From: Segetibacter sp.
GTDB lineage: Bacteria > Bacteroidota > Bacteroidia > Chitinophagales > Chitinophagaceae
Direction of reading: 5' to 3'
NCBI RefSeq assembly: GCF_025963695.1
Contig: NZ_JAOQAH010000030.1
Location: 2,396 to 66,395, forward strand
Length of the DNA stretch: 64,000 nt
The notes below the pieces were generated by a model. It saw only the letters and a list, made by a program, of their open reading frames with translations. It ran no database searches and was not told the DNA's origin. Positions 1 to 46,403 of the stretch are shown one piece after another. How positions within the stretch are numbered: position 1 is the first letter of the stretch; each line of letters starts with the position of its first letter. The position numbers were made by a program, and so were the translations under genes.

Positions 1-1188
1 ACCCACTTCTGCTTTTGAATCGGTAGGGAGATTCGTTGTCCATCTAATAGAGGCTGTTGTCTCAGTTATTTTTTCAATAAAAGGCCCACTAATAATCCTG
101 GCTTGTTCAGGTGGTTCTACAAATCCTTCCAGGCTTAAGTCGAAAGCTATATCAGTACTGGTAGGATTTGATTGATGAATTTCTACTGCAACTACGTTAA
201 TGCCTGTTGTAAAGGCCGATGCGTTAATGTTGAAGGTTCGTAGCAAGCCGTTTTCGTCAACAGAACCAAGTGCAAGGGTTGTATAAGATATAGGGCCAGA
301 AGGCATATTATTACGATATACTTCTTTACTGTTTATATAAACTATTACTCCATCATCCCTCTTTACACTAAAACTATATTTTTTAAAAGCTTCAGGATTT
401 TGCAACGAAATAGTCCGTCTAAAATACGTAGTAATGTATTTGTTGTTAGGATCGGGGCCGAAACTTACAACAGTGCTTTCATTCCTATTTCCATAGCCAA
501 GTATAGCCGGTCCGCTTTTCCAACTCGCATCCGAAAAAGATATTCCAGTCCAGGAATTGCCCTGATTGGACCCGTCATCAAGGTACTTCCACCAAGAGCT
601 AAAAGGAATTGAGGTAGGATCGCTTACTACAGGATTTGCAGTTACACGCATATCAAAACTGATGTCATTGCTGCTATGGGTAAATTGATGAATTTCAACG
701 GCAATAACATTGTTTCCTTTTAAAACCAAAGAGGCACTTGTAGTAAAGCTTCTAATATTGCTACGGTCATTACTAAGGGACGCTGCAAAGGTGTTATAAG
801 AGAGTGGGCCAGCAGGCATATTGTCACGGAAAATCTCCACACCATTCAAGTATACCACCACCCCATCATCCCTTTTTATTTCCGATAAAAAGGAAGAAAA
901 AAAAGAAGGATCGCCACAATGTTCTATCCTTCTGAAGTAAGTAGTTATGTGTTTTTTTCTTGGGTTAGAACCATAGCTTATTACTGTACTTTCATCCCCA
1001 TCCCCATAACCCAGTTCTCCGGTACCGCTCTTCCAGTTGCTGTCGTCATAGTTAAGACCAGTCCATGCAGACCCTTGGTTTGAGCCGTCATCGAGGTACT
1101 TCCAGGAAGAGCCAAATGGAAATACTGTTTGAGCAGCTAATTCAAATGCAGGAATCGCTAGTAGTAAGATGAGGATAAGTTTTTTCAT
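1..1188 (-). CDS. Secreted protein with two tandem ~170-aa galactose-binding-like beta-sandwich domains followed by the start of a purple-acid-phosphatase/FN3-like N-terminal segment (partial, runs off the left edge; absent from the ORF track)
   Basis: Manual translation from ATG 1188 is open for 396 codons. Signal peptide MKKLILILLLAIPAFELAAQ. Two copies of WKYLDDGSNQG..W...W.SG...LGYG...E.TV.S.G...K.ITTYFRR...KRDDGV.VY.N..E..R.NMP.GP.SY...AVEIHQ, then ISGPFIEKITETTASIRWTT. Confidence 0.8.
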   Translation of the reverse strand, partial: MKKLILILLLAIPAFELAAQTVFPFGSSWKYLDDGSNQGSAWTGLNYDDSNWKSGTGELGYGDGDESTVISYGSNPRKKHITTYFRRIEHCGDPSFFSSFLSEIKRDDGVVVYLNGVEIFRDNMPAGPLSYNTFAASLSNDRSNIRSFTTSASLVLKGNNVIAVEIHQFTHSSNDISFDMRVTANPVVSDPTSIPFSSWWKYLDDGSNQGNSWTGISFSDASWKSGPAILGYGNRNESTVVSFGPDPNNKYITTYFRRTISLQNPEAFKKYSFSVKRDDGVIVYINSKEVYRNNMPSGPISYTTLALGSVDENGLLRTFNINASAFTTGINVVAVEIHQSNPTSTDIAFDLSLEGFVEPPEQARIISGPFIEKITETTASIRWTTNLPTDSKAEVG

Positions 1189-1332: not shown

Positions 1333-2715
1333 CTAAAAAGCATTACTATGCACCTTACTACTAAAAACAGTTAGGAAGATAATTTTCAGATCCAGTAAAA
1401 ACGACCAATTTTCAATATACCATAAATCGTGGCGTGTCCGTTCATTTTTCTGTTGTTCTGTATCCGTTGGACCTCTCCAACCATTAACCTGAGCCCATCC
1501 TGTTATGCCGGGTTTTACATAGTGTCTAACCATATAGAGGTAAACACATTGCTGAAGTTGTTTATTGAGAAACTGCCTGTGCGGCCTTGGACCTACTACA
1601 CTCATATGTCCTAATAATACATTAAGAAACTGCGGCAGCTCATCCAAACTATATTTTCGTACTATTTTACCGAGCGTGGTAATTCTGGCGTCGTTTTTTT
1701 CCGTGGACAAAGTACCACCGGTAGAAGTGTCGCTCTGGCGCATACTTCTAAACTTAAATACTTTAAAAGGCTTCCCTGCTCTTCCTATCCTCATTGGGCA
1801 ATAAAAGACTGGCCCCGGAGACTCTAGCTTGATTAAGATAGAAAGAATTATAAACAACGGAAACAAAAAAAGTAAAACCGCTGCAGAAAATGTTCTGTCA
1901 AATAAAGTTTTACTAAAAGAAGCTAATAGTCCCTCCACTGGTAACTGGCGAACATTTATTGCATTGACCTGGCCTAATCTTGTTAATCTGCAATTTTCTC
2001 CGAAAATGTGTTTGTAATCAAAGACATACTTCACTCGAATACCATGATAGTCGGCAGCAGAAATAATATTCTGTATTTTTTTTGTCTGTTCGATGGGTAA
2101 AGCAATAACAATCTCATCGACTCTGTTCTCTTGTAAATATTGCTGAATATCCTTTAAATTACTAACTATTTTTTCATGACCTATTGTACAAACCTCTTTA
2201 CTAGCGCAATTAATAAACCCTTTAATTTGATACCCAGCCACCTTACGTGAGTAAAGCTGTTCTTCAACAATTTTTGCTATAGTTCCGGTACCTGCAATTA
2301 AAGTATAATTGACACGTTCCTCAGTTTTTCCTATGAAAGCTTTTAAACTAATAAATGCAGAATAAACTAAAATATCAAGAATGGGAATGACAATTGATAT
2401 AGCTGCTATTCCCTTTTTATTTACAATAGGAATAGGAATTAGTATATAGAATAACAGTATCGTTGCAACAAATAAACCATATGCTTTTATATAGTTAGCC
2501 GTCCACTTACTAATTGCACTATCCATTTTTGAGAAATATACTTTTCTTACATGTTCTAATAAAGCCCAGAAAAAGATAAAACACGATAGTATAATACATT
2601 CAATTCTAGAAAAGTTGTAGTGCCAAAAAAAGAAAACAGACATAATAAAGGCCGTAGTAATTGTCAGAACATCCTCTTGAAAATAAAACGGAGTTTTTAT
2701 TTTTAGGGTAATCAT
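1333..2715 (-). CDS. wcaJ: Undecaprenyl-phosphate glucose phosphotransferase (priming glycosyltransferase, WcaJ/CpsE family)
   Basis: N-terminal TM helices, CoA-binding-like middle (LIAGTGTIAK, RVDEIVIALP), C-terminal bacterial sugar transferase motifs FKFRSM, SLDELPQFLNVLLGHMSVVGPRP, KPGITGWAQVNG, DLWYIENWSFLLDLKI. Confidence 0.92.
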   Translation of the reverse strand: MITLKIKTPFYFQEDVLTITTAFIMSVFFFWHYNFSRIECIILSCFIFFWALLEHVRKVYFSKMDSAISKWTANYIKAYGLFVATILLFYILIPIPIVNKKGIAAISIVIPILDILVYSAFISLKAFIGKTEERVNYTLIAGTGTIAKIVEEQLYSRKVAGYQIKGFINCASKEVCTIGHEKIVSNLKDIQQYLQENRVDEIVIALPIEQTKKIQNIISAADYHGIRVKYVFDYKHIFGENCRLTRLGQVNAINVRQLPVEGLLASFSKTLFDRTFSAAVLLFLFPLFIILSILIKLESPGPVFYCPMRIGRAGKPFKVFKFRSMRQSDTSTGGTLSTEKNDARITTLGKIVRKYSLDELPQFLNVLLGHMSVVGPRPHRQFLNKQLQQCVYLYMVRHYVKPGITGWAQVNGWRGPTDTEQQKNERTRHDLWYIENWSFLLDLKIIFLTVFSSKVHSNAF

Positions 2716-3074
2716 AAAACATATATTAAAGATTATAGAAGAATAATTTTAAGGCTGTGTTGTATCGATTAGTAGGATAATTGTACGATATTGAATAAGG
2801 ACTAATAACTGTTCGCTAAGGGCGATAGGGCAATGAAAGCTTACCTTCTAAACGGCAAAATGTTCTTTGAATAGGAAGAACCTTTCTTAGATAGTTAAAA
2901 TAAATACAGATTAGAAACGGGGAGCAAAATGATCTTCTAAAAAGATAATAGTGGCATTAAAAGACCTAAAAGAAAGGTTGCTGATTGGAGTAGCATTTAA
3001 ATCTAATTAAAGAGAATAAAGGTTACAGACTTGGAAAAGTATGAAGTAAGACGCCTAGAGAAATAGAACGGGTC

Positions 3075-37017: not shown

Positions 37018-37267
37018 GTTCAATAAGTTAATTTACCAGCTAAAGTAAAAGGTAATTTTAGATAAAGATCGAGATTGCCAAAGACTTTAACTAATTCAGC
37101 AACTATTAGAACAACTCTTTTTTGATGCCGCCATCTTGCTACTATTAAACATTTTTGCGTCGCACTCTTGTACAGTTTCTTCTTTACTCGCCAAAATACC
37201 CACATCACTAATTAATTTCCTGCCACTATAAAACCTTTTACTTTTGTCGCAAGACTCAAAAGTAAAA

Positions 37268-42259: not shown

Positions 42260-42288
42260 TCATCATTGTTGCGTCGCACACTTGTACC
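42260..42288 (-). repeat. Dispersed mini-hairpin repeat, copy B
   Basis: GGTACAAGTGTGCGACGCAACAATGATGA; identical (29/29) to copy C. Confidence 0.85.
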
Positions 42289-43565: not shown

Positions 43566-45017
43566 CTACTCCTCCTCATCCGCTAACAGTTCTCCATTAG
43601 TCAATTCGGGCAAAATAATTTTTACCTGTTCATCACTTAACGTATCTACACCTTTCAGTCTTTTTTGGATAGCTCTTGTTCGTACACCTGCTACATTTTC
43701 AAGTTGATCTAATCCGGTTTGTATGTTTCTCTGGGCTTTTTCGAGTAAGCCGCTAAAATTGCCAAACTCAGTTTTTACTGCGCTCAACAATTGCCATACT
43801 TCCCCGCTTCGTTTTTCTATAGCTAACGTACGAAAGCCCATTTGTAAACTGCTTAAGAAGGCAGAAAGAGTGGTAGGACCGGCGATGTTTATTTTACATT
43901 CTGTCCGTATGCTTTCAAATAGCCCCGGGGTTCGCAGCACTTCAGCATATAAACTTTCAAACGGCAGAAACAAAATAGCGAAGTCTGTTGTATTGGGAGG
44001 ATCAATATAGCGACCGCAAATATCGCTTGCACATTTTTTTATCCCTCTTACAAAAGCTTTACGGCTTTCTTCAATCTGCTCAACGTCGCCTATTTCATAA
44101 GCCTGCATCAGCCATTCAAAATCTTCTTTGGGAAACTTTGAGTCAATGGGCAGCCATAAAGTTTTGTCTTTGTTGCCCGGAAGTTTTACAGCAAACTCTA
44201 CCAATGCGTTGCTACCTTCTTTTGTTTTTACATTCTTGGCGAATTGATCAGGGGTTAGTGTTTGTTCAAGAAGGTTTTCTAATTGGTATTCGCCTAGTAG
44301 ACCACGAGTTTTTACATTGCCAAGTACACGTTTAAGATCGCCTACACCTGTTGCCAGTTGTTGCATGTCTCCAAGACCTTTGTGTACGGCTTCGAGTCTT
44401 TCGCTTACCAGTTTGAATGACTCTCCCAAGCGTGTTTCAAGTGTCTGCTGTAATTTTTCGTCTACCGTTATTCTTATTTGTTCCAGCTTTTGTTCGTTGC
44501 CTTGTTGAAGTTCGGCAATCTTCTTTTCAAGAGTCAAACGCATGCTATCAAGACGGTTACTGGTATCGTTGTTTTGTTCGCTCTGTTTGTTTAGAAGCGC
44601 ATAAAAGTTGTCTTTTTGTAGCGCGTTCAATTCTTGAATGGATAGGGCAAGGTCTTTTTTAAAAGTGTCAAGGGCTTGTTTTATCTCGGTTCGGGTTTCT
44701 TTTACATTGCTATTATTGGCTTCACTGAAAGCTGTGAGTTTATGATCGATAGTATTGGTGAGATGATTTAATTTTTCTTCAAAAGAAATAAGGGACGATG
44801 CAAGTTCTCTTCGGGCAAGGGCAGCATTGTCAAAAGTCTCTTTTCGGTTAGAAGCAATTTCTGTTTTTACAGATGCTTCTACCCTTTGCATTTCAAGCCC
44901 TAGCGAGTCTAGTTTATAGGGAAAGCCGGCGTCTTTGTTGTTGGTTGCGCGGGATGACATAATAAGGTTGATAACGAGCAGCAGAATAATGATCGCCAGA
45001 AGGATGTAAATAATCAT
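43566..45017 (-). CDS. rmuC: DNA recombination protein RmuC
   Basis: N-terminal TM then coiled coil, KTRGLLGEYQLE, PIDSKFP, PPNTTDFAILFLPFESLYAE, PTTLSAFLSSL. Confidence 0.93.
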   Translation of the reverse strand: MIIYILLAIIILLLVINLIMSSRATNNKDAGFPYKLDSLGLEMQRVEASVKTEIASNRKETFDNAALARRELASSLISFEEKLNHLTNTIDHKLTAFSEANNSNVKETRTEIKQALDTFKKDLALSIQELNALQKDNFYALLNKQSEQNNDTSNRLDSMRLTLEKKIAELQQGNEQKLEQIRITVDEKLQQTLETRLGESFKLVSERLEAVHKGLGDMQQLATGVGDLKRVLGNVKTRGLLGEYQLENLLEQTLTPDQFAKNVKTKEGSNALVEFAVKLPGNKDKTLWLPIDSKFPKEDFEWLMQAYEIGDVEQIEESRKAFVRGIKKCASDICGRYIDPPNTTDFAILFLPFESLYAEVLRTPGLFESIRTECKINIAGPTTLSAFLSSLQMGFRTLAIEKRSGEVWQLLSAVKTEFGNFSGLLEKAQRNIQTGLDQLENVAGVRTRAIQKRLKGVDTLSDEQVKIILPELTNGELLADEEE

Positions 45018-45126
45018 GAAGCAATTTAACCGCTTACAATTGAATAATGAACAGGATAATGGTTGCTTTGAGTTTTGCTGCCATTTTGCTTTGGATAGAA
45101 CTCCCCGGTGTTGTATAAAAACCACT

Positions 45127-45800
45127 ATGGGACGTTAAAAACAAACGAACCGTCGAACATTCTACCAACAAAATGTTCCGCTGGAACATTTACATGTGGT
45201 ACCAGGAACATGCGTACACACTTTAGGTACAAGAACCACCGTATAGAGTCATCTTGCTTTAATGTCCCGTAGGGACATGTGGTAGGTAGAGGAAAGGTTG
45301 TTGTGCTTACGTGATATAGGGAACGTTTGGTGCAGAATGAAATACATATCAAATCACCAGGCGTCCCAAATGGGACGTTAAAAACAAACGAACCGTCAAA
45401 CATTCTACCAACAAAATGTTCCGCTGGAACATTTACATGTGGTACCAGGAACATGCGAGCACACTTTAGGTACAAGAACCACCGCATAGACTCATCTTGC
45501 TTTAATGTCCCGTAGGGACATGTGGTAGGTAGAGGAAAGGTTGTTGTGTGGACGTGATATAGGGAAAGTTTGGTGCAGAATGAAATACATATCAAATCAC
45601 CAGGCGTCCCAAATGGGACGTTAAAACCAACGAGCCGTCAAACATCTACCAACAAATTGTTCCGCTGGAACATTTAGATGTGGTACCAGGAAGATACGTA
45701 CACGCTGTAGATACAAAAACCACCGTATAAATACATCTTGCTTTAATGTCCCGTAGGGACATGTGGTAGGTAGAGGAAAGGTTGTTGTGTGGACGTGATA
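45127..45800. repeat. Tandem array of ~2.8 copies of a 243-bp unit built from REP-like palindromes (REPIN/BIME-like)
   Basis: Units start at 45127, 45370 and 45613. Each has TCTACC-N6-ATGTTCC(GCT)GGAACAT and an inverted partner ATGTCCC(GTA)GGGACAT-N6-GGTAGA, forming 130-bp modules at 45161-45290, 45404-45533 and 45645-45774. CGTCCC(AAAT)GGGACG lies at the unit junctions. Confidence 0.92.
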
Positions 45801-45802
45801 TC

Positions 45803-45831
45803 GGTACAAGTGTGCGACGCAACAATGATGA
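45803..45831 (+). repeat. Dispersed mini-hairpin repeat, copy C
   Basis: GGTACAAGTGTGCGACGCAACAATGATGA, abutting the truncated third 243-bp unit. Confidence 0.85.
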
Positions 45832-46022
45832 TTTGAAAAACAAATGCCGGTAACAAAAAAAAACAACCCAGCGCAAAGATCAAAAATGAAAACCGTTGCT
45901 TCTACCAGAGGCAATACCGTAGCATTTCAATAAGCGTTATTTGTAAACCTCTATATTTGATTAACAAAAAGAGCTAACGGTTGCAAGATAACTTTGAGCA
46001 TTCGTTGTAGTGGTAGTAATTG

Positions 46023-46403
46023 ATGAAAACAAACCTTATTTTAATTGGCTTAGGTGGTGCGCTTGGCAGTATATTAAGATACCTGACTTCATTGTACGTA
46101 GCAAGGCACTTTTCTACTATGATTTTTCCCTATGGCACTTTTGCAGTTAATGTAATTGGTTGTATAATTATTGGGATAATTTATGGAATGTCTGAAAGAT
46201 TTCAGTGGCTGACTCCTACCCTACGATTATTTCTGGTGACAGGCTTTTGCGGAGGATTTACAACTTTTTCCGCTTTTGCATATGAGAATTTGCAGCTACT
46301 ACAAGGTTCAAACTTTACCGGGTTTGCGCTTTATTCTATTTTAAGTTTCATTGTCTGCATTGCCGCAGTTTATGCAGGACTACTATTAGTAAAGAGCATT
46401 TAA
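46023..46403 (+). CDS. crcB: Fluoride channel Fluc/CrcB
   Basis: GGALGSILRY, FPYGTFAVNVIGC, GFCGGFTTFSAF; four TM helices. Confidence 0.95.
   Translation: MKTNLILIGLGGALGSILRYLTSLYVARHFSTMIFPYGTFAVNVIGCIIIGIIYGMSERFQWLTPTLRLFLVTGFCGGFTTFSAFAYENLQLLQGSNFTGFALYSILSFIVCIAAVYAGLLLVKSI

Follow-up and report, generated by a model that had tools for sequence, protein, structure and literature searches.

The array and its modules

The DNA analysed here (the window) is a stretch of 64,000 nucleotides (64 kb) from contig NZ_JAOQAH010000030.1 of a Segetibacter-like member of the Chitinophagaceae. Between the genes rmuC and crcB, which are divergently transcribed, it carries a tandem array of inverted, hairpin-forming modules that an initial annotation had likened to repetitive extragenic palindromes (REPs). 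Tandem Repeats Finder reported a single array at 45127–45801, with a period of 243 bp, 2.8 copies, 93% matches and a score of 1182. The window's long tandem repeats are limited to this one.

Every unit includes a 130-bp block which begins with TCTACC and ends with GGTAGA (45161–45290, 45404–45533 and 45645–45774). Within the blocks lie two related palindromes, ATGTTCC-GCT-GGAACAT (hairpin A) and ATGTCCC-GTA-GGGACAT (hairpin B), each 6 nt from its own tag and differing from one another by one compensatory pair, T-A to C-G. A third palindrome, CGTCCC-AAAT-GGGACG (hairpin C), is found at the unit junctions (45362–45377 and 45605–45620), and a half copy of it opens the array. The array hairpins have perfect stems of 6–9 bp and loops of 3–4 nt. 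Hairpins of the form GTYCC-N3-4-GGRAC number eight in the window, and all eight are inside the array, 0.19 being expected from shuffles. The number of units, the hairpins, the tags and the palindrome at the junctions are all as the initial annotation had given them.

Alignment of copies from outside the window indicates that the underlying module is bipartite and about 83 nt long. Its first hairpin, ATGTYCC-N3-GGRACAT, is followed by a single-stranded tail, N-TGGT-N-GGTAGA (TGGTNGGTAGA), in which GTAG is conserved 8 nt 3' of the hairpin; GTAG also occurs across loop and stem (GTA-G). After some 22–25 variable nucleotides comes the second hairpin, CGTYCC-N3-4-GGRACG, and then YTGGTG. Hairpin 2 is conserved as a structure, because it shows compensatory changes at four pairs (31 cells), a result reached by none of 500 shuffles, while the slid controls collapse. 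One subfamily of hairpin 2, consisting of nine sequences possibly of one origin, has G-T (G-U) at one pair of the sense strand, where A-C never occurs; such an exclusive pair would fit a single-stranded, strand-specific substrate.

A covariance model (R1) was derived from 58 external modules, the window being excluded. Run on the window with its filters off, it gave six significant matches (E 3e-9 to 6e-4), all of them in the array, and the best match elsewhere in the window had an E value of 0.59. The features of the array are as follows.

45127–45801, no strand: the whole tandem array, 2.8 units of 243 bp, or six two-hairpin modules in three inverted pairs (Tandem Repeats Finder; all six significant R1 matches; same ends in contig L254, described below).
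45136–45191, minus strand: minus module 1, truncated (R1 24.0 bits, E 5.6e-4; sequence). It retains hairpin A (45173–45189), its tail and the tag TCTACC (45161–45166); half of its second hairpin remains (45127–45134).
45192–45259, no strand: 68-nt spacer from the minus module to the next plus module, recurring at 45435–45502 and 45676–45743 (unit comparisons).
45260–45340, plus strand: plus module 1 (R1 47.4 bits, E 3.3e-9), with hairpin B (45262–45278), tail GTGGTA, tag GGTAGA (45285–45290), a decayed second hairpin, CGTGATATAGGGAACG (45310–45325), and the tail TTTGGTG (45326–45332).
45347–45434, minus strand: minus module 2 (R1 42.7 bits, E 3.8e-8), both hairpins of which align to the model: hairpin A (45416–45432), tail and tag TCTACC (45404–45409), hairpin C (45362–45377) and tail CACCAGG (45355–45361).
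45503–45583, plus strand: plus module 2 (R1 41.5 bits, E 7e-8), with hairpin B (45505–45521), tag (45528–45533) and decayed second hairpin (45553–45568).
45590–45675, minus strand: minus module 3 (R1 37.7 bits, E 4.8e-7), with hairpin A (45657–45673, one outer mismatch), tag (45645–45650) and hairpin C (45605–45620).
45744–45801, plus strand: plus module 3, with hairpin B (45746–45762) and tag (45769–45774); R1 gives 41.7 bits for 45744–45838.

The 243-bp unit is therefore composed of a minus module, the 68-nt spacer and a plus module, and minus and plus modules alternate through all six, spaced 68 and 6 nt apart by turns. If the reading starts from the junction instead, the unit becomes a plus/minus doublet whose modules are 6 nt apart, the arrangement in which the family is most often found elsewhere. 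What the initial annotation had taken for a third, separate hairpin is indeed present, but according to R1 it is the second hairpin of the minus-strand module, and a fourth, decayed hairpin completes the plus-strand module. Both ends of the array fall inside the loop of a hairpin 2. The right end cuts plus module 3 in the loop of its second hairpin, and the portion of the R1 match beyond 45801 is non-repeat sequence. A search of the 68-nt spacer for outer terminal inverted repeats such as those of the 265-nt element (described below) yielded just a 5-bp GGTAC/GTACC pair.

Units 1 and 2 differ at exactly nine positions, none of them in stems or tags, as had been estimated initially. Unit 3 is, as also stated there, more diverged: it differs from unit 2 at 16 positions and by two 1-nt deletions, the latter unreported by Tandem Repeats Finder, and one of its changes falls on the outermost pair of the left hairpin, while the right-hand hairpin and its tag are identical in all three units. 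The 68-nt spacer holds most of the between-unit differences. Over the two unit comparisons, hairpins and tags received one of 25 substitutions where 6.9 were expected (P = 0.003).

These differences bear on the possibility that the array is a protein-coding repeat with a period of 81 codons, read from an open frame on the minus strand. The unit length is divisible by three, the window has minus-strand open reading frames (ORFs) of 156 and 97 aa, and in L254 the Joint Genome Institute (JGI) annotation has a hypothetical protein of 263 aa that spans the array. Against this, the two 1-nt deletions break the frame in unit 3 of the window, the nine nucleotide differences between units 1 and 2 are mostly non-synonymous (five amino-acid changes), the ORF lacks a plausible start context, and a single protein cluster among 5.8 billion matched, from the same locus and with no Pfam domain. 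We regard a coding repeat as extremely improbable; the frame-breaking deletions and the single same-locus cluster effectively refute it. The open frame itself runs through the array at 45125–45914 (minus strand) of the window and at 117–908 of L254, where it is annotated as the 263-aa protein P0001, which looks like a spurious gene call arising from the repeat.

The array is genuine and not an artefact of assembly. A collapsed or chimeric assembly might be suspected from the fact that most short-read contigs break within the array, but L254, an independent 13-kb JGI contig, crosses it together with both flanks and has the same ends and the same 2.8 copies. Contigs L085, L087 and L088, from other assemblies, cover the array in part and agree on its internal order. 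Unit-specific variants appear in separate runs, and in three soil runs the array unitigs have 2–4 times the depth of the flanks. The chance of an artefact, a concern raised by the initial annotation, is accordingly negligible. The window and L254 each have 2.8 copies of the unit and L087 has at least 3.6, and the second unit of L254 combines units 2 and 3 of the window as a mosaic. Populations or assemblies therefore vary both in how many units they have and in what the units contain. The contig depths suggest that the source genome has few or no further identical copies.

Rfam 15 gave no match at the gathering score in the whole window. With E values up to 10 the best match in the array region was L19_leader (E 0.16), caused by hairpin A, and in 20 related loci no family covers the modules. 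The module family looks undescribed so far.

Relatives of the modules and the adjacent Y1 gene

Metagenome contigs and species-representative genomes were scanned with the pattern GTAGGGACAT-N-TGGT-N-GGTAGA. The metagenome contigs yielded 57 stretches, many of them different contigs of the same samples and several holding two inverted copies. The genomes yielded 28, from Chitinophagales and Cytophagales: Chitinophagaceae metagenome-assembled genomes (MAGs), Flavisolibacter ginsengisoli DSM 18119, Lacibacter, Dyadobacter and Algoriphagus. Exact scans for the variant present in the window (TGTCCCGTAGGGACATGTGGTAGG, and the form ending in GGTAGAGG) returned nothing from a genome collection that does not include the source genome.

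R1 recognized 189 modules in the 568 kb of motif-bearing loci. The modules are extragenic: no more than 9% of their bases fall within open frames of at least 150 codons, as against 77% for the loci overall. Neighbouring modules are mostly inverted (73 of 93 pairs), with 54 pairs plus/minus, 19 minus/plus, 16 minus/minus and four plus/plus. Single modules (32 cases) and twos (49) predominate over clusters of 3–5 (nine) and of 19 (one). The largest cluster has about 19–20 tandem modules in two alternating sub-variants with a period of roughly 110 nt; it is in Dyadobacter sp. MAG OZ257152.1 (L150, 2350–3770, corresponding to L174, 1–1500) and lies directly upstream of a gene for a Y1 transposase. 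Four loci of F. ginsengisoli DSM 18119 carry modules, which at one of the four adjoin such a Y1 gene, and single MAGs also have modules at several loci.

In one soil population we found a 265-nt palindromic element (ATAGGATTAGGTAGAAT ... ATTCTACCTAATCCTAT) with sharp ends in at least nine unrelated flanks. Sharp ends in varied surroundings are, as far as sequence can tell, the signature of a small mobile element. When the element ends were aligned (L092, L100, L107, L108, L119 and L144), most copies had AT or AC on both sides; either a favoured target sequence or a 2-bp duplication might account for this.

The Y1 gene was recognized at a Dyadobacter locus where a module array ends about 100 nt upstream of it. 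Its 153-aa product matches PF01797 [Y1_Tnp; 3e-33, 114.8 bits against a cut-off of 23] and the NCBIfam IS200/IS605 model NF033573 [94.1 bits, cut-off 55]. With NF047646 [REP_Tyr_transpos] it scores 32.8 bits, under the cut-off of 80, and so falls outside the class 2 REP-associated tyrosine transposases (RAYTs). The closest solved structures are ISDra2 TnpA (3e-12) and IS608 TnpA, and Escherichia coli TnpAREP (4er8) is absent from the PDB matches. In the Dyadobacter koreensis DSM 19938 locus (L226) the Y1 gene with its modules is flanked by two matches to the cobalamin riboswitch, at 821–1107 (minus strand) and 2582–2877 (plus strand); the matches are in opposite orientation and about 290 nt each, compared with the 189 positions of the model.

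Homologues of this gene adjoin modules in four further loci of different genomes, that is, in all of the first five loci; the F. ginsengisoli gene has a plus module before it and a minus module after it. At least 537 relatives from throughout the Bacteroidota were recovered by a profile scan, and the best 80 of these loci were used for counting. Modules occur within 1.5 kb of the Y1 gene in 78 of the 80, a plus module lies no more than 150 nt upstream of the start in 64 (median 34 nt), and a minus module no more than 150 nt after the stop in 47 (median 8 nt). The initial annotation had allowed that the motif might be unique to its locus and without an associated HUH nuclease; neither is so, given the 57 metagenome and 28 genome stretches and the frequency of the Y1 gene beside modules in other genomes.

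Two Y1 copies in one MAG are 80% identical exactly across module, gene and module (651 nt), and their flanks are unrelated; the two same-genome gene pairs that were compared are 71–80% identical. Related species share the flanks of the block as well. From such comparisons the module-gene-module block looks like an old unit resembling an insertion sequence (IS), now low in copy number and at the same position in the related-species pairs compared. In an alignment of five sequences the protein has the signature DHIH / WQ / YI(R/Q)NQE(E/A)HH and a length of 150–153 aa, which are those of TnpAY1 subclass 1.2. HIH and the tyrosine are reported as invariant in all five, one of which has DHLH instead of DH[IV]H.

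The site between rmuC and crcB

Outside the array three features of the locus are relevant.

43566–45017, minus strand: rmuC, with its likely start ATG at 45017, separated from the array's left end by 110 nt (ORF list; PF02646 on the identical gene in L254; 91% identity to RmuC of Segetibacter aerophilus).
45804–45915, no strand: homologue of the stretch just 3' of the stop codon of the S. aerophilus TauE-like gene, outside the array and marking the ancestral context (blastn against L002).
46023–46403, plus strand: crcB (ORF list; PF02537, CRCB).

In S. aerophilus (L002) a leftward crcB is followed by a TauE-like gene of 269 aa (L002, 2936–3745) and then by rmuC. The last third of the TauE-like gene is left in Segetibacter sp. 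RYN_279 (L003, 2924–3199), and in the window the gene has been lost, with only the stretch past its stop codon surviving (45830–45915 in this comparison). The array therefore sits where a spacer once separated the TauE-like gene, at its end, from rmuC. The site, by this comparison, is a former co-directional gap of the kind typical for REPs and not a primary divergent promoter. Neither of the two orthologous Segetibacter sites read directly (L002 and L003) has an array, and the L003 site has about 640 nt of unrelated extra sequence. R1 found no modules in 80 rmuC loci of other genomes, except for two weak matches in one. The latter (26 and 23.5 bits) form an inverted pair beside rmuC at L076 79–236, in a Prevotellaceae MAG from the distant gut Bacteroidales.

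Two Bacteroidetes-type −7 boxes for crcB, TATATTTG (45952–45959) and TAACTTTG (45989–45996), are both downstream of the array. Inside it there are only relaxed matches to such boxes (TACATGTG), which are part of the repeat, and no exact −7 box was found upstream of rmuC. Some 110 nt of rmuC-proximal sequence, partly conserved in S. aerophilus, separate rmuC from the array. The array had been said to occupy the shared promoter region of the two genes; it does lie between divergent genes, but outside the core promoter of crcB. Neither a fluoride riboswitch nor any other Rfam family was detected upstream of crcB (45830–46022) with E values up to 10.

Abutting the right end of the array, at 45804–45830 (plus strand), is a dispersed 27-nt motif, GTACAAG-N-GTGCGACGCAA(CAATGATG), which is also present in the window at 42261–42287 and 37155–37175, both on the minus strand. 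It recurs in other genomes of the Chitinophagaceae and Sphingobacteriales (L002, L003, L004, L026, L118, L235 and L241), and in soil contigs it has many different continuations on either side. On reading its opposite strand one finds small hydrophobic ORFs ending in ...VASH(S/T)CT.

One regulatory reading is that the perfect 16–17-bp palindromes are operators of a dimeric regulator, multiplied in the rmuC-crcB control region: there are three of them per unit, they have a common GTYCC...GGRAC core, and they lie between divergently transcribed genes. The same modules, however, occur by the hundred near unrelated genes and around the Y1 gene, and compensatory stem changes preserve their pairing and not their sequence. 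No such sites are present in the orthologous regions read, R1 found none in other rmuC loci beyond the exception mentioned above, and both the promoter elements of crcB and the conserved rmuC-proximal sequence are outside the array. We therefore think it very unlikely that the palindromes are operators.

Alternatively, the units might specify a tandem structured RNA, non-coding or cis-regulatory, such as an array of small RNAs or a leader of crcB or rmuC. The plus strand of the unit folds better than its shuffles (z −3.3) and the minus strand does not (z −0.9); the hairpin-2 subfamily that has G-U but no A-C at one sense-strand pair suggests that the functional form is single-stranded; and co-transcribed REPs can act as RNA elements (PMC3733652). 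Yet G-T pairs are equally expected in hairpins of single-stranded DNA, each unit has modules in both orientations, the family is found elsewhere in every orientation and context, neither the array nor the related loci match Rfam, and the crcB promoter boxes are downstream of the array. An RNA function for the units is on this evidence unlikely, though less so than a role as operators. Small soil metatranscriptomes of the same study had no reads and no contig at the locus and are uninformative on transcription. Any effect of the array on the expression of rmuC or crcB is predicted to be secondary.

Affinities and probable origin of the array

IS200/IS605 and RAYT enzymes are HUH/Y1 nucleases which read hairpins and a short guide on single-stranded DNA. 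We consider it likely that the array consists of clustered REP/REPIN-type elements that were mobilised by a Y1 enzyme and amplified in tandem, much like a cluster of bacterial interspersed mosaic elements (BIMEs) in E. coli. Its elements are small and hairpin-forming and, to judge from their sequence, probably mobile. The initial annotation had likewise proposed a non-autonomous REP/REPIN-like element of the HUH/Y1 kind with tandem amplification, and R1, the dispersal of the family and its association with Y1 genes support this in essentials. It had named RAYT and IS200-like transposases together; the module-linked enzyme is IS200-like, of class 1.2, and not a classical RAYT.

The resemblance to the REP/REPIN-RAYT systems of E. 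coli and Pseudomonas lies in the following: short extragenic hairpin palindromes arranged as inverted doublets and clusters; a conserved single-stranded tag containing GTAG; elements which, in other genomes and not in the window, bracket a low-copy HUH/Y1 gene in inverted orientation; and a Y1 gene at orthologous positions in related species. Unlike those REPs, the modules are bipartite, with two different hairpins about 25 nt apart. With BIMEs and REP clusters the array shares the alternating palindromes, the regular spacing, the tandem repetition of a dimer with adjacent DNA and the variable copy number (PMC3733652), but its 243-bp period is longer, it has no known IHF (integration host factor) or gyrase sites, and it is one isolated cluster whereas BIMEs number hundreds per genome. 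Taken by itself the array is nothing unusual, being a BIME-like REP cluster and so of a kind already known. Its family is a new variant in its bipartite module, in the position of GTAG and in its link to subclass 1.2. Di Nocera et al. 2013 (PMC3733652) reported no GTAG REPs from Bacteroidetes.

Several observations weigh against assigning the array to the REP/REPIN type. Canonical REPs have GT[AG]G directly at the 5' foot of the hairpin, and in the modules GTAG is instead 8 nt 3' of hairpin 1. The enzyme beside the modules belongs to class 1.2 (Y---Q--HH, 153 aa) and the RAYTs to class 2 (Y---NP). No Y1 gene was detected in the window by tblastn, as the initial annotation had already noted of a cognate transposase. 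There are no further modules in the window outside the array, and with array unitigs at just 2–4 times flank depth the modules appear confined to one cluster in the source organism, so that, from the window and the depths, the high-copy dispersal of REPs is not apparent for that genome. A clean insertion junction is not definable against L002 and L003, the spacer being too diverged. Some flanks of the 265-nt element resemble 2-bp direct repeats, which are not expected from HUH transposition. Finally, the mobility of the family is inferred from sequence.

If the array is a REP-type cluster, its history may be pictured as follows. A Y1 enzyme would bind the module hairpins in single-stranded DNA and cut and rejoin near the GTAG-bearing tail, which presumably takes part in recognition or cleavage. 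Doublets without a gene would be moved by this enzyme as non-autonomous elements, and one of them might have landed between the TauE-like gene and rmuC in the lineage of the window. Tandem amplification of the doublet and some adjacent DNA may have followed, through replication slippage or unequal recombination between neighbouring modules; the units would exchange sequence by gene conversion, and either conversion or selection would preserve the hairpins and tags. Tandem growth by recombination or slippage has been described for REP clusters generally (PMC3733652). The array is probably an isolated cluster in the source genome, and possibly an orphan one, because the window has no Y1 gene and the depth points to few or no further identical copies.

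TnpAY1 subclass 1.2 was described by Quentin et al. 2018 (PMC6006769) as a group of about 148 aa with the motifs DH[IV]H, WQ and Y---Q--HH, present at 1.7 copies per genome in Cyanobacteria and Bacteroidetes, scored “REP: no” and generally lacking terminal secondary structures. The module-linked Y1 proteins share its signature, its length, its low copy number with divergent copies in the same genome and its occurrence in Bacteroidota. In contrast to the published “REP: no”, modules accompany nearly all of the Y1 loci counted here, and among the papers searched no later one was found to link subclass 1.2 with REPs. Subclass 2.6 (RAYT group 5, of Bacteroidetes) and class 3 (of Acidobacteria) similarly have Y1 genes alongside non-canonical hairpins that recur in the genome, termed “atypical secondary structures” (PMC6006769), but their catalytic signatures, NH[LIV]H and YIH[QN]NP in 179 aa and NHVH and YV..EQ in 178 aa, differ from that of the module-linked enzyme.

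By sequence the nearest enzyme family is IS200/IS605 (IS608, ISDra2). Elements of that family have subterminal hairpins which are read on single-stranded DNA. The module-gene-module arrangement is comparable in being a 650-bp block with sharp ends. It differs in that the ends of the block are inverted copies of one module, where those of the IS are two different hairpins on the same strand; in that no tnpB is present; and in that Y1 copies of one genome are 71–80% identical and not, as in an active IS, near-identical.

With these comparisons in mind we lean, with only modest confidence, towards a broader interpretation: a REPtron-type system that is so far undescribed, of which the array would be a local trace, and in which Y1 enzymes of subclass 1.2 serve bipartite REPs throughout the Bacteroidota. 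This system would span Chitinophagales, Cytophagales, Sphingobacteriales and Flavobacteriales and would be intermediate between autonomous IS200 elements and domesticated RAYT/REPIN systems. Its module-gene-module block can still be recognized, and the gene-less doublets and the clusters would derive from that block.

For the window itself the significance is modest: a lineage-specific insertion and amplification beside the control region of rmuC, where a neighbouring gene was lost. Clusters like that between rmuC and crcB are likely sites of copy-number variation, and the modules break short-read assemblies and lead to false gene predictions, the 263-aa “hypothetical protein” being one. Most work on REP/REPIN-RAYT systems has concerned Proteobacteria. 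If the association with Y1 genes is true, the orphan enzymes of subclass 1.2 would gain a substrate, REPIN-type elements would extend to a major phylum of soil bacteria, and a form intermediate between IS200 and RAYT would be at hand, useful for understanding how transposases become domesticated.

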